A stretch of DNA of 64,000 nucleotides from an uncultured Eubacteriales bacterium (GCA_900546415.1 URCY01000002.1:605-64604), one strand, 5' to 3'; shown: positions 29,608-58,722, numbered from the stretch's first letter. Numbers and translations are program-made. Notes: generated by a model from the letters alone, not told the origin.

Positions 29608-29705
29608 GGAACCTCTGAATCAATCGGCAGCGGCGCTCAGCGGGTTTTTCCCCAACTGATCCTTGAAATACACAAAGGATTCCTGCGATTTCATCAGAGT
29701 TTCCC
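29608..29705. repeat. MITE-like repeat, copy A (98 bp, ~19-bp imperfect TIRs, flanked by TA/TA); lies in the 5' UTR of the M23 peptidase mRNA
   Basis: Left end GGAACCTCTGAATCAATCG and right end CGATTTCATCAGAGTTTCC are inverted repeats. TA at 29606-7 and 29706-7. Homologous copies at 42586, 56717 and 58687. Confidence 0.7.
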
Positions 29706-29731
29706 TATCTTTTGATAGACAGATACCTTGT

Positions 29732-29760
29732 ATTTTAGCACAAACGGTCGAAAATTGCAA
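29732..29760 (-). promoter_or_regulatory. Sigma-A promoter of the M23 peptidase gene (minus strand)
   Basis: On the minus strand: TTGCAA, 17-nt spacer, TAAAAT. Confidence 0.55.
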
Positions 29761-29814
29761 GCTCAAGAGGCGCGGAATCCCAGTACACGCAAAAAATTCA
29801 TGGATGGTTCAAAA

Positions 29815-30171
29815 TCATTGCAGCAGCGCGTCGTATTCCGGCTCAGAGCAGAACGTGACCGTCAGGCGGTTCGGCAGACAGACGATCGGCGCTCCGGAGC
29901 TCGCCGCACCGTGCCGCACGCAGTCCTGCGTCGGGCAGGAGGCGGCTGTCACGGATGCCTTGCCGCCGCGCACGGTCACGACGTTCCAGCCGTATTCGGA
30001 TTCGATGCGATACTCACCGTCCACGGATAGGGGAACGGTCCTGACCGGTTTGCCGTCGGAGCAGATCTCGATCGAATCCGCCTCGGGGGCATATTGCGCC
30101 AAGGCCAGCGCCGCAATGCCGCACAGCAGCGCCAGCGCAAGAAACAGCAGAATCCAATGCTTCGTTTTCAT
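29815..30171 (-). CDS. NusG-domain-II-containing small membrane protein (ApbE-associated)
   Basis: N-terminal TM segment, CPTQDC and IVCLPNRL motifs. Overlaps the apbE 3' end. Confidence 0.6.
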   Translation of the reverse strand: MKTKHWILLFLALALLCGIAALALAQYAPEADSIEICSDGKPVRTVPLSVDGEYRIESEYGWNVVTVRGGKASVTAASCPTQDCVRHGAASSGAPIVCLPNRLTVTFCSEPEYDALLQ

Positions 30172-31154
30172 GGTTCGATCACCTGAAATTCACAGCCGCT
30201 CAGCAGGACGGCCGCGCCCTTTGTTGCATAGACCGTGCCGTCCTCCAGCACGAATACGGCCTCAAAGCCGCCGTTCCTGCGCCAGAATTCCGTCGCGCGC
30301 TCCAGTCCCATGACGAAGAGCGCCGTGGAATAGCAGTCGGCAGTCAGACCGTTGCCGCAGAGGACGGTCACGGAGCGCAGGCCGCTCTGCGCCGGATAGC
30401 CGGTCTTGGGGTCGAGAATGTGATGATAGCGCACGCCGTCCTGCTCGAAATAGCGCTGGTAGCTCCCCGAGGTCACGACAGCCATCGAGCCGGAGAAGCG
30501 CAGCAGCGCCAGCGCCCGCGTCGGCTCGTCGGGGTCTGCGATGCCGACCGTCCAGTCTGAGCCATCGGGCTTCTTGCCGAGGGTCTGCACATTCCCGCCG
30601 AATTGCAGCAGGGCGCAGGAGATACCGCGCGCCTCCAGCAGCTCGGCGCACCGTTGCGCGGCGTAGCCCTTGGCTGCGCCGCCAAGGTCGAGCTGCGTGC
30701 CGCCGTCGAGCGTCACGGTTTGCGCTTCCATCTGAACATGCGCCGTGCCGACGGTTTGCAGCGCCGCGCGCAGGGTCTTTTCATCCGGCACGCGCTGCTG
30801 TCCGTCGGGAAAGCCCCATGCCTCCACGAGGGCGCAGACCGTCGGGTCAAAGCAGCCGTCCGTCTCGCGGCTGAGGCGTATGCATTCGCTCAGCAGCGCG
30901 ATCAGCTCGTCGGAGCAGACGGCCGAGCCGTTCTGATTGAGCGCCGCGAGCGTGCCGCTGCCCGTGACGGAGAGGGCGGCGTCGAGCCGGTTGACCTCCT
31001 GCACGGCGGCGGTGAGATCATCCCGCGTGCCCCATATGCGGGCACGCATCAGCGTATCCATTGCAAAAAAATCCTCCGAGACAGGCTCGGACGCCCCGCT
31101 GCAGCCGGTCAAAAGCAGCGGCAGGAGCAGAAGCAGGCAGAAAAGTCGTTTCAT
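30168..31154 (-). CDS. apbE: FAD:protein FMN transferase (ApbE family) lipoprotein
   Basis: Lipobox LLTGCSGAS. ApbE core with VTSGSYQRYFE...HHILDPKTG. Confidence 0.8.
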   Translation of the reverse strand: MKRLFCLLLLLPLLLTGCSGASEPVSEDFFAMDTLMRARIWGTRDDLTAAVQEVNRLDAALSVTGSGTLAALNQNGSAVCSDELIALLSECIRLSRETDGCFDPTVCALVEAWGFPDGQQRVPDEKTLRAALQTVGTAHVQMEAQTVTLDGGTQLDLGGAAKGYAAQRCAELLEARGISCALLQFGGNVQTLGKKPDGSDWTVGIADPDEPTRALALLRFSGSMAVVTSGSYQRYFEQDGVRYHHILDPKTGYPAQSGLRSVTVLCGNGLTADCYSTALFVMGLERATEFWRRNGGFEAVFVLEDGTVYATKGAAVLLSGCEFQVIEP

Positions 31155-31230
31155 GGCAGCCTCGCAGTTCAAAATAGGTCGATTCTTCAAAAATATTATA
31201 GCAAAAACCGAAAAAAATAGCAAATAGTAT

Positions 31231-31259
31231 TTGACAAAACGGATTATGAATGATAAAAT
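31231..31259 (+). promoter_or_regulatory. Sigma-A promoter of the rplU-prp-rpmA operon, followed by an ~85-nt structured leader (possible L21 leader)
   Basis: TTGACA, 17-nt spacer, TAAAAT. Leader region 31260–31343 precedes the rplU start. Confidence 0.55.
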
Positions 31260-31343
31260 AGGAAAGCCGCATTGAAGAGGTTTTCAAGCTGAGCGTGCTC
31301 ACACCTCCAGAGCGAGACTACAAAAAAGGTAGGTGCAAACAGA

Positions 31344-56782: not shown

Positions 56783-57051
56783 TAGCATATACTCTCTATA
56801 AATATAGCATTCCATCGCGCATTTGTCCAGAAGACATCATTCGGTAAAATTGCCAAAAAGTACGCCGAAATTTGTCATATATGCACGAAAGCCAAGACAG
56901 CGGCACTTCCTAAAATGCTTTCTACTCTGTGATGAATCAGCGATGATCCGGGCAGAATACGCAAATGGCCTGCCCGTCGCTTCAAGCGGGAACTTCGTGC
57001 ATGTGCCGCGCCGCGGGCGCATAGAGTGAAAAGGGGAGGGGGGACGAGTTT

Positions 57052-57447
57052 ATGAAGAAGCAAACCAAACGGGGACGCTCCGTGATCCGGCCGCTGACCG
57101 TGCAGCTCCTGATCGCCGCGCCGGTTCTGACGCTGCTGCTCTGTCTGGCAGTCGCGCGGCTGATCCTGTCCGGCGTCGTGCCTGAGGAACGCATCACGCT
57201 CTGCGCGTCCGCGATTGCCGGCATCACCGGTTTTTTGCTGAGCCTTTATTGCGGCGTGCGCGTGCCGCAGAAGCGGCTGCTCTGGGGCATGGTAGCGGCT
57301 GCGGGCTATGCGCTGCTGCTCCTGATCGGCAACCAGTTCTTTTTCGGGATGCCGTATTCCGGCGTCGCGGCGTGCCTTGGCACAATTTTTGCCGGAGGCC
57401 TTTTGGGCAGTCTGCTCAGCTCGGTTCGCAGGCAAAAATACGCCTGA
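57052..57447 (+). CDS. Small integral membrane protein (TIGR04086-like, ~4 TM)
   Basis: 131 aa with four hydrophobic segments. GGGGAGGGGGG ribosome-binding site. Confidence 0.55.
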   Translation: MKKQTKRGRSVIRPLTVQLLIAAPVLTLLLCLAVARLILSGVVPEERITLCASAIAGITGFLLSLYCGVRVPQKRLLWGMVAAAGYALLLLIGNQFFFGMPYSGVAACLGTIFAGGLLGSLLSSVRRQKYA

Positions 57448-57511
57448 ATCGGTTTCGGACAATTGCAGGAAAACTTGCAAAATTCCGAAACCACAAAATC
57501 GTGCGTCGAAA

Positions 57512-57550
57512 AAAACCGCCTCCACTACATTTTGTGGAGGCGGTTTTTTG
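57512..57550 (+). terminator. Rho-independent terminator (second of two tandem hairpins)
   Basis: aaaaccgcctccac...gtggaggcggtttttt. A preceding hairpin lies at 57451–57493. Confidence 0.75.
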
Positions 57551-57650
57551 CCTTGCATGTGCACATGTGGGCAGTTGCTTGGTTTACATAATGTTGTTTA
57601 CATAAAATATGTGCATAATGAACAAATTTTGAACGGAGCATAAAAAAGTA

Positions 57651-57679
57651 TTGAAAAACAGTAATTTTTGCGCTATAGT
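57651..57679 (+). promoter_or_regulatory. Sigma-A promoter inside the AT-rich island upstream of the Xer recombinase gene
   Basis: TTGAAA, 17-nt spacer, TATAGT. Confidence 0.5.
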
Positions 57680-57799
57680 AGTGATTACAGCGAATCAAAA
57701 GTTTGTAAAAATCCTGTTTTTACCATAATTTGTGTTTCTTGTGTCCGGTATACACAATATCTTGATTCCGAGTTTTTGCGAAAGGGGTGCGGCAAACAA

Positions 57800-58687
57800 A
57801 TGGCTGATCTGGTCACTGCTTACGAGAGCTTTCTTCTGAATATCCGGCACGCTTCGGCAAACACCGTTTCGTCGTACCTGCGCGACGTGCGCCAGTTCTC
57901 GGACTATCTGACTGCCCACGGGGAGGCGCCGCTGGAGCGCGTGGATCGTGCGTGCGTCTGCCGCTACACGCAGCACCTGACGCAGGACGGCAAGTCCCCG
58001 GCGACCGTTGCCCGCTGCGTCGCCTCGCTCAAGAGCTTCTACCGTTATTGCGTCTCTGAGGGTCTTACGCCGGAAAATCCGGTGCGCTCGATCCCGCAGC
58101 AGAAGTCCGAAAAGAAGCTGCCGCAGATCCTGACCGGACGGGAGGTCGAGCTGCTGCTCGAGCAGCCGAAATGCGTCGATTGCAAGGGCTATCGCGACAA
58201 GGCCATGCTCGAAACGCTCTATGCCACCGGTATGCGCGTCAGCGAGCTGATCTCCCTGAACGTCACGGACGTCAGCCTTGCGGGGGCCTTTGTCAAATGC
58301 AGCGGAACGGGCGGAAAATACCGCATCATCCCGCTCTATCCCGCTGCCGTGAGCGCTCTGACGGCCTATCTGACCGAGATCCGCCCGAGAATGGTCGCAG
58401 ACCCGGAGGAATCCAGTCTGTTCGTCAATATGAGCGGCGAGCGCATGACCCGGCAGGGCTTCTGGAAGATCATCAAGCGCTATCAGGAGTCCGCGCAGAT
58501 CAGCAAGGACATCACGCCGCACACTCTGCGCCACAGCTTCGCGGCGCACCTGCTCGAAAACGGCGCAGACATTCGCTCCCTGCAGGAGATGCTCGGCCAC
58601 AGCGACGTTTCCTCAACGCAGATCTACACGCAGGTCGTCAAGCAGAACCTCAAGACCGTCTATAACAAGTTTCACCCGCGTGCCTAG
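57800..58687 (+). CDS. Tyrosine site-specific recombinase, XerC/XerD family
   Basis: N-terminal core-binding domain (LSYLRDVRQF). C-terminal catalytic region RHSFA...HLLENGADIRSLQEMLGHSDVSSTQIYTQV with the catalytic Tyr. Confidence 0.85.
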   Translation: MADLVTAYESFLLNIRHASANTVSSYLRDVRQFSDYLTAHGEAPLERVDRACVCRYTQHLTQDGKSPATVARCVASLKSFYRYCVSEGLTPENPVRSIPQQKSEKKLPQILTGREVELLLEQPKCVDCKGYRDKAMLETLYATGMRVSELISLNVTDVSLAGAFVKCSGTGGKYRIIPLYPAAVSALTAYLTEIRPRMVADPEESSLFVNMSGERMTRQGFWKIIKRYQESAQISKDITPHTLRHSFAAHLLENGADIRSLQEMLGHSDVSSTQIYTQVVKQNLKTVYNKFHPRA

Positions 58688-58722
58688 GGAATCTCTGAAT
58701 CAATCGGCAGCGGCGCTCAGCG
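58687..58722. repeat. MITE-like repeat, copy D (truncated; left TIR plus core only)
   Basis: GGGAATCTCTGAATCAATCGGCAGCGGCGCTCAGCG. The preceding TA is part of the recombinase TAG stop codon. Overlaps the 3' end of the convergent hypothetical gene. Confidence 0.55.

Follow-up and report, generated by a model that had tools for sequence, protein, structure and literature searches.

A stretch of 64,000 nt from an uncultured Eubacteriales bacterium (GCA_900546415.1, URCY01000002.1:605-64604; hereafter the window) contains four copies, A to D, of a small interspersed repeat. The repeat is very probably a transposable element of the miniature inverted-repeat kind (MITE), that is, a non-autonomous DNA transposon, which is mobilised in trans by a DDE transposase of the IS5 group and decays by deletion. 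The element has defined boundaries, duplicates 4 bp of its target, occurs as different alleles at the same sites in sister strains, is spread over many species, and shares its terminal sequence with IS5-group elements; the transposase acting in this host is presumed to come from the same group. Among strains of one uncultured gut species, the family has been mobile in recent time. In a sequence-only reading of the window, the repeats had been described as a dispersed, MITE-like family whose ends are inverted repeats and whose target sites are duplicated, and this description is supported, while the family assignment is corrected here from a mariner type to an IS5 type. Overall, a well-documented and recently active MITE family is added to human-gut Clostridia.

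Copies, boundaries and distribution of the family

The whole window (G+C about 60%) was scanned, and public gene calls were taken from the corresponding contig CAAGPH010000056.1 of the human-gut assembly GCA_900771865.1, for which the window position equals the record position minus 623. A degenerate terminal 20-mer matches the window at seven places, whereas dinucleotide-preserving shuffles predict 0.10, and none of 100 shuffles reaches seven. A profile built from 28 full-length relatives recovered copies A, B, C and D only. Both searches agree with the four positions given by the sequence-only reading, and all four copies are intergenic by the public gene calls, as it had stated. The element boundaries are GGAAC…GTTCC; the outermost base, which had been counted as the first or last base of the repeat, is part of the target duplication. 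Imperfect terminal inverted repeats of ~19 bp, GGAAYCTCTGAATCAATCG … CGATTKMATCAGAGSTTCC, bound the full-length element, and across 28 diverse copies the termini are invariant or nearly so, with helices 1-2 98% paired. No open reading frame (ORF) fits inside the element, either at its full length of 159 bp or in the derivatives of 63-97 bp.

In a species scan, with one genome per species and GGAAYCTCTGAATCAATCG as the query, at least 98 matching stretches were found, so that further copies do exist beyond the window. Four of these are chance matches in unrelated phyla, and the remaining ones, among the matches listed, belong to about 34 assemblies that bear the label Oscillospiraceae, Faecousia, Clostridiales or Clostridia. 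The family is present in at least 30 Oscillospiraceae/Clostridia species represented by metagenome-assembled genomes (MAGs). Many matches are located at contig ends, which is to be expected because the repeat breaks MAG assemblies. Pairing of the termini gave 66 complete copies among the matches listed, to which all counts out of 66 below refer; 49 of them span 160-164 nt between the outer bases of the terminal 20-mers, corresponding to an element of 159-161 bp. Since most paired copies have this span, the window copies are derivatives and not the full form.

Rfam 15 yielded no match in the window at gathering thresholds and none at E<=10 around copy A and one full-length copy, and on another subfamily there were only chance-level microRNA/snoRNA matches, far below threshold. 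Among the papers that could be searched, none was found that contains the terminus sequence or describes Oscillospiraceae MITEs, and human-gut Clostridia are unmentioned in a 2024 review of prokaryotic MITEs (PMC10969869).

Relative to full-length copies, copy A has its left arm as well as the apex and right terminus; in copy B, the left arm is kept together with the right sub-terminal part; copy C has about 30 nt of left arm in addition to the right terminus; and of copy D only the start of the left arm is left. Copies A and B have the left ~57 nt and the right terminus in common, with non-homologous middles; 78 of 100 aligned columns are identical, and these are concentrated in the left 57 nt. 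The two had been described as copies of ~95 bp with ~85% identity over their full length; they are 97 and 92 bp long, the full form is 159 bp, and the identity is lower. Compensatory hairpin changes were considered for the difference between A and B and were rejected, since their alignment shows two different deletion derivatives.

Other size variants were also observed. A 51-bp mini-derivative, GGAAYCTCTGAATCAATCGCTGACCGCTCTTGCGATTTCTTCAGAGATTCC, flanked by CTAT on both sides and present at one locus in four metagenome samples (L125, L133, L134, L138), is the smallest form seen with both termini. Variants of 225-249 bp (L063:7584-7808 and L095:2678-2926) have an extra segment of ~85 bp inside the left terminus, between GAAT and AAATCG; this segment resembles a small nested element, or else an alternative module.

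Target-site duplication and alleles in sister strains

In 31 of the 66 copies, one and the same 4-mer directly flanks GGAAC…GTTCC on the left and on the right, whereas 2000 trials with shuffled pairings give 4.8 such copies on average and at most 12. In the in-register 5-bp frame there is no identity (0/66), and the best 5-bp frame gives at most 4/66. The duplicated 4-mers are CAAG, CTAA, TTAG, ATAG, CTTG, CTAT, CTAG and similar, with the positional consensus C/T, T/A, A, G/A, written Y-W-W-R.

The target duplication had previously been read as TA, as expected for a Stowaway-like MITE that is moved by an IS630/Tc1-mariner transposase and inserts at and duplicates this dinucleotide. IS630 targets CTAG, and TA is indeed the commonest dinucleotide beside the 20-mer (31/66 left and 36/66 right flanks). 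However, AA, TT or TG centres are also frequent, and the left and right flanks also change together in the bases around the central dinucleotide, the whole 4-mer being identical in 31 of the 44 copies in which the central 2-mers match. The mariner model would demand end bases of the element itself that vary from copy to copy. Every clean empty site has one 4-mer (ATAG, CTAT or CTAG) and the filled site has two; therefore, the TA model is disproved. Together with termini that match IS5-group elements at 18 of 19 positions, these comparisons leave the IS630/Tc1-mariner assignment very improbable.

Public assemblies that encode small proteins of the neighbourhood in identical form provided sister-strain contigs of the same species, and a comparison of empty and filled sites, which the sequence-only reading had suggested, could be made with exact empty sites, for example at A and D. 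There are eight insertion sites in the 64-kb region, and the state differs between strains at seven of them. At site A, the element is present in nine of ten sister-strain contigs and absent from L114, where …caaaagATAGgaggttttccatg with one ATAG stands in place of …ATAG-element-ATAGgagg… of the window. In L110, a second, full-length insertion with CAAG on both sides is located 25 bp upstream of site A, a few bases downstream of the -10 box. At site B, the 92-bp form occurs in two strains and the element is absent in seven, in which the flank has diverged; L104 has the full-length 159-bp element in the same place with the same CTAA duplication, and therefore copy B arose by deletion in situ. 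The copy at site C is present in every strain contig seen.

Site D is known in three states. It is empty (gcCTAG-CGC-tca…) in five strains (L142, L144-L147), with 3 bp between the stop codon of the Xer-type recombinase gene and that of the convergent ORF; it has a full-length copy with CTAG on both sides in L143, and the truncated form in the window and L141. Comparison of these alleles shows that the truncation joins an element-internal CGCTCAGCG to an identical 9-mer of the native flank; in this 9-mer is the stop codon that natively ends the convergent 207-aa ORF (58717-58719, reverse complement TGA). The truncation leaves the convergent gene with its own stop codon, and its C-terminus is unchanged. 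Copy D abuts the Xer TAG stop, as had been noted, while its supposed overlap with the convergent gene is the 9-bp microhomology common to the element and the native gene end.

Insertions at other sites were found upstream of apbE (CTAT/CTAT in L114 versus eight empty strains), in the gap between a CBS-domain gene and a gltX-like gene (CTTG/CTTG in L110 and L113), and in the DUF3792-xer gap, where L142 and L144 have a full-length insertion with flanks CTTG and AATG and the empty allele is atatCTTGattcc. At the last of these sites, the flank change creates an ATG directly downstream of the element. Presence or absence of the element, as well as full-length or deleted alleles, within one 64-kb region provide a strain-level marker for an uncultured gut species.

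One arrangement outside the window involves two copies. In L080:1319-2659 (UMGS1116 contig URLT01000068.1), two inverted full-length copies flank a gene for a 176-aa GNAT acetyltransferase (1694-2224), which has a weak ArsN1-like match only. The outer flanks are CTAG and CTAG, and the inner flanks differ (CTAA, CAAG). This arrangement fits a MITE-bounded composite transposon, with the CTAG match being ~18% likely by chance.

Relationship to the IS5 group

E. coli IS5 duplicates 5'-YTAR-3' (PMC5009759), and the ends of the E. coli K-12 element, GGAAGGTGCGAATAAG, are identical to the MITE terminus at 11 of 19 positions. In the human-faecal contig MT838640, a match from a phage collection, there is an IS5-like element, TTAA-GGAAGCTCTTCAAAAACCCC…-TTAA. 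P0080 (DUF772 + DDE_Tnp_1), a protein reached via this contig, is encoded by a 1,234-bp gut insertion sequence (IS) with the ends TTAA-GGATGCTCTGATTAAATCGG and, reverse-complemented, GGATCCTCTGAGCAAATGCC-TTAA, its right end being …GGATCC-TTAA. P0113 is 71% identical to P0080 and matches NCBIfam NF033581 (IS5 family) with 261 bits against a cutoff of 140; its element has the left repeat GGATGCTCTGATTAAATCGAG and the right repeat, reverse-complemented, GGAACCTCTGATCAAATAGG. The P0124 element has CTAA duplications, the terminus GGAAGCTCTG… and the end GGAAGCTCTGGACAG.

The MITE arm variant GGAAGCTCTGATTAAATCG (L041, L064, L142) is identical at 18 of 19 positions to the left repeat of the P0080/P0113 elements. 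The other arm resembles their right repeat (16/20 for P0113), and the asymmetry between the right and left repeats of these elements is mirrored by that between the left and right termini of the MITE. The termini begin with GGAA in the IS5 group as in the MITE, and a 4-bp AT-centred palindrome is duplicated in both, TTAA and CTAA being used by the gut elements. Therefore, the YTAR-like 4-bp duplication, the GG termini and the left-repeat match place the MITE with the IS5 group. The likeness is confined to the ~19-bp termini: the MITE has no transposase gene, and its interior is unrelated.

The probable course of events can be described as follows. An IS5-group DDE transposase, supplied in trans, would bind the terminal repeats and cut a palindromic, AT-centred target with a 4-nt stagger (Y-W-W-R: CTAG, CTAA, TTAG, CTAT, CAAG, CTTG), and repair of the gaps would duplicate the four target bases. 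Insertions land in intergenic, often promoter-proximal DNA. Subsequently, internal sequence is lost by deletion between short repeats, and such decay accounts for the 97-, 92- and 63-bp forms and the 26-nt remnant of the window.

Several observations weigh against mobilisation by an IS5-group transposase. An autonomous element with exactly the termini of the MITE was found neither in the window nor in about 1 Mb of related loci; a terminus scan of viral contigs for such an element gave 0 matches, blastn against plasmids and phages gave nothing, and a metagenome scan excluding the common MITE arms gave only the 51-bp mini-copies with their CTAT duplication and chance matches in coding DNA. Elements of the P0080/P0113 type seem to have Gram-negative hosts, in contrast to the Gram-positive-type Clostridia lineage that carries the MITE: the P0083 cluster is named Sutterella, and the L160 copy of P0113 has flanks of 68% G+C with DUF3261, RND-type and SBF genes. 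The target is looser than the YTAR of IS5, CAAG and CTTG being common, and one polymorphic insertion has an imperfect duplication, CTTG/AATG. Finally, the strong co-variation of the arms described below is neither required nor accounted for by DDE transposition.

The matching IS5-group elements look proteobacterial so far; given these Gram-negative-like hosts, they are relatives of the partner and not the partner itself. Within the related loci, all inverted terminus pairs 0.5-3.5 kb apart belonged to separate MITEs, no insertion sequence emerged when the loci were compared with one another for repeats of >=400 bp, and tblastn of E. coli InsH against all loci gave one spurious match in a homoserine-dehydrogenase region. 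Because MAGs rarely assemble insertion sequences and the species scan covers the matches listed, a partner may be present in the host lineage and have escaped these searches. In a tblastn search of plasmids with InsH, the list of matches was filled by enterobacterial IS5.

The same terminus type, here GGAACCTCTGAATCAATCG / GGAACCTCTGAACAAAT, bounds small elements with unrelated interiors at L035:~3770-3867, L047:~3120-3241 (HGM12660) and L160:182-289, one of which sits in a Gram-negative-like contig of 68% G+C that carries the P0113 insertion sequence. It seems that one IS5-type terminus serves several MITE families, across phyla. The occurrence of the terminus type on insertion sequences in Sutterella-like Proteobacteria also hints at cross-phylum spread of one gut IS5 lineage. 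At L160:~7390-7793 there is a CRISPR-like array, with the repeat GTTTCAGTCTCAGAGGGCCTCGAAGTAAGATTGCACC and spacers of ~37 nt, near a truncated 210-aa copy of an IS5-family transposase.

Similar elements are known from other organisms. Tourist-like MITEs (PIF/Harbinger, IS5-related) are eukaryotic and have a short AT-rich palindromic duplication, the 3-bp TWA, while the Stowaway/mariner type duplicates TA. Like the MITE described here, Tourist-like elements are non-autonomous derivatives of an IS5-related DDE lineage, an analogy that is mechanistic only. RUP, BOX and ERIC of streptococci and enterobacteria are likewise small intergenic hairpin repeats whose numbers vary between strains, with unrelated sequences; RUP is tied to IS630-Spn1 and a TA duplication, and BOX and ERIC are not known to have clear duplications. 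Correia elements (CREE/NEMIS) of Neisseria have a TA duplication and 26-bp termini. They resemble the present family in being abundant elements of 100-160 bp with inverted termini and with full-length as well as internally deleted forms, in their insertion next to promoters and untranslated regions (UTRs), in forming a long transcribed hairpin, and in their presence or absence between strains (PMC10969869). For Correia elements, promoters, an IHF site and RNase III cleavage have been shown by experiment, whereas the MITE described here is known from sequence, and the sequences of the two are unrelated.

Pairing of the arms and position relative to genes

The RNA of a full-length copy folds into one long hairpin over its whole length (-57.8 kcal/mol, z = -6.2), and the derivatives of the window give z values of -2.6 to -4.2. 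The consensus of 28 diverse full-length copies is a single hairpin of 52 pairs, 23 of which show compensatory double changes. In these copies, 93.9% of cells are paired, compared with 83.2% after shuffling and 33-51% with slid partners, and double changes occupy 163 cells, compared with 51 in the shuffled case. While the stems vary, the apex GGAAATACAYAMAGKATTCC stays conserved, as do the termini, A/T-rich segments and two internal loops, both asymmetric. Since wholesale copying from arm to arm would erase the conserved asymmetries, it seems that the pairing itself is maintained.

How such pairing might arise can be considered in several ways. The element may be more than a selfish MITE, with pairing of its ~75-nt arms under direct selection, in keeping with stems that co-vary across species around fixed asymmetric loops, phased A/T tracts and apex; this appears rather unlikely on the present evidence. 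In one version, very short IS5-type elements may have to pass through folded or sharply bent DNA as they transpose, a form that would bring their two ends close to each other. In another, the transcribed hairpin may be a portable RNA processing or stability signal at housekeeping-gene promoters of gut Oscillospiraceae. If either version is true, the family would lend itself naturally to the question of why so many bacterial MITEs are palindromes over their whole length.

It is unlikely that the element is primarily, or additionally, a selected structured RNA or DNA module (acting in processing, stability or attenuation, or as a bend or cruciform), whose spread is secondary or which is an exapted MITE. 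Such a module would agree with the compensatory changes, with the loops and A/T-rich modules that are conserved while stems vary, with the stable fold and with the location of several copies in 5' UTRs; RNase III also cuts Correia elements at their paired termini (PMC10969869). On the other hand, presence or absence of the element at promoters of essential genes means that no copy is required, the copies decay by deletion, Rfam gave no match, and a scan predicted no terminator-like sites at copies A and B. Among eight insertions with known gene context, four are sense and four antisense to the neighbouring transcription, which argues against a strand-specific RNA role, although either orientation gives a similar hairpin.

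A conserved hairpin over the whole element could also suggest single-strand mobilisation that depends on the hairpin, of the REP/RAYT or the palindrome-associated IS200/IS605 type, instead of DDE cut-and-paste. HUH-type mobilisation is not known to make a target duplication, and the exact 4-bp duplication at every clean empty/filled pair, together with classical inverted termini matching those of DDE elements of the IS5 group, makes this mode hardly conceivable. REP/BIME elements (RAYT-dependent palindromes of 20-40 bp with no duplication) were also rejected as a class for this repeat, since it is 159 bp long with inverted termini and an exact 4-bp duplication.

With regard to neighbouring genes, a sigma-70-like promoter, TTGCAA-17-TAAAAT with an upstream TG, is predicted on the minus strand at 29760..29732, and copy A is located between this site and the Shine-Dalgarno sequence that serves the M23 peptidase gene. 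Through the duplication the ATAG/GAGG junction is restored, so that the ribosome-binding site is intact; the earlier placement of copy A in the 5' UTR of this gene, next to the Shine-Dalgarno site, agrees with this position. Copy C is downstream of a minus-strand promoter-like site (56829..56801) that reads towards a phosphopantetheinyl transferase gene. Both family termini have an outward-facing -35-like hexamer, TTGAAT/TTGATT, about 10 nt from the element end, and at 56766-56793 (+) TTGATT in the right terminus of copy C, a 16-nt spacer and a flanking TATACT form a hybrid promoter-like site. The 5'-UTR hairpin and the outward hexamers may affect neighbouring genes, and the filled and empty promoters and 5' UTRs (M23 peptidase, apbE, yajC, xer) are a natural set in which effects on expression may be compared.

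Coordinates of the four copies, their target duplications and associated features in the window (positions in nt)
Feature	Position	Strand	Remarks
Matches of the terminal 20-mer	29607+, 29686-, 42586+, 42660-, 56718+, 56763-, 58687+		Both ends of A, B and C, and left end of D
Left target duplication of copy A, CTAT	29604..29607		Read directly; empty allele of L114 has a single ATAG (minus) = CTAT (plus)
Copy A, 97-bp internal-deletion derivative, GGAACC…GTTTCC	29608..29704	+	5' UTR of M23 peptidase gene, antisense to the transcript
Right target duplication of copy A, CTAT	29705..29708		Minus-strand AG runs into the Shine-Dalgarno site (ATAG/GAGG)
Left target duplication of copy B, CTAA	42583..42586
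Copy B, 92-bp internal-deletion derivative	42587..42678	+	Between tgt stop and yajC promoter region, sense to both
Right target duplication of copy B, CTAA	42679..42682
Copy C, 63-bp short form with both termini	56719..56781	-	Left-arm-first on the minus strand; flanks CCGG/CTAG
Left target duplication of copy D, CTAG	58684..58687		TAG within it ends the Xer-type recombinase gene (57800-58687)
Copy D, element-specific remnant, first 26 nt of left arm	58688..58713	+
9-bp microhomology CGCTCAGCG	58714..58722		In element left arm and native flank; deletion junction truncating copy D

The intergenic region in which copy C is situated separates two divergent genes, that for the phosphopantetheinyl transferase (55985-56611, minus) and a DUF3792 gene (57052-57447, plus), and the target duplication of copy C is degraded (CCGG versus CTAG). 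The 207-aa ORF convergent with xer (58717-59340, minus strand) is conserved and has no Pfam match; a hairpin-forming inverted repeat, TGCCGCAGAACG…CGTTCTGCGGC, lies within its last ~25 codons. At 59368-60969 (+), a HAD-phosphatase and an Xaa-Pro aminopeptidase (M24) are called as one protein in the window and in L141 (533 or 521 aa), while in L142, L143 and L145-L147 they are two overlapping genes of 170 aa and 354 aa. This difference is a strain-level fusion or frameshift.

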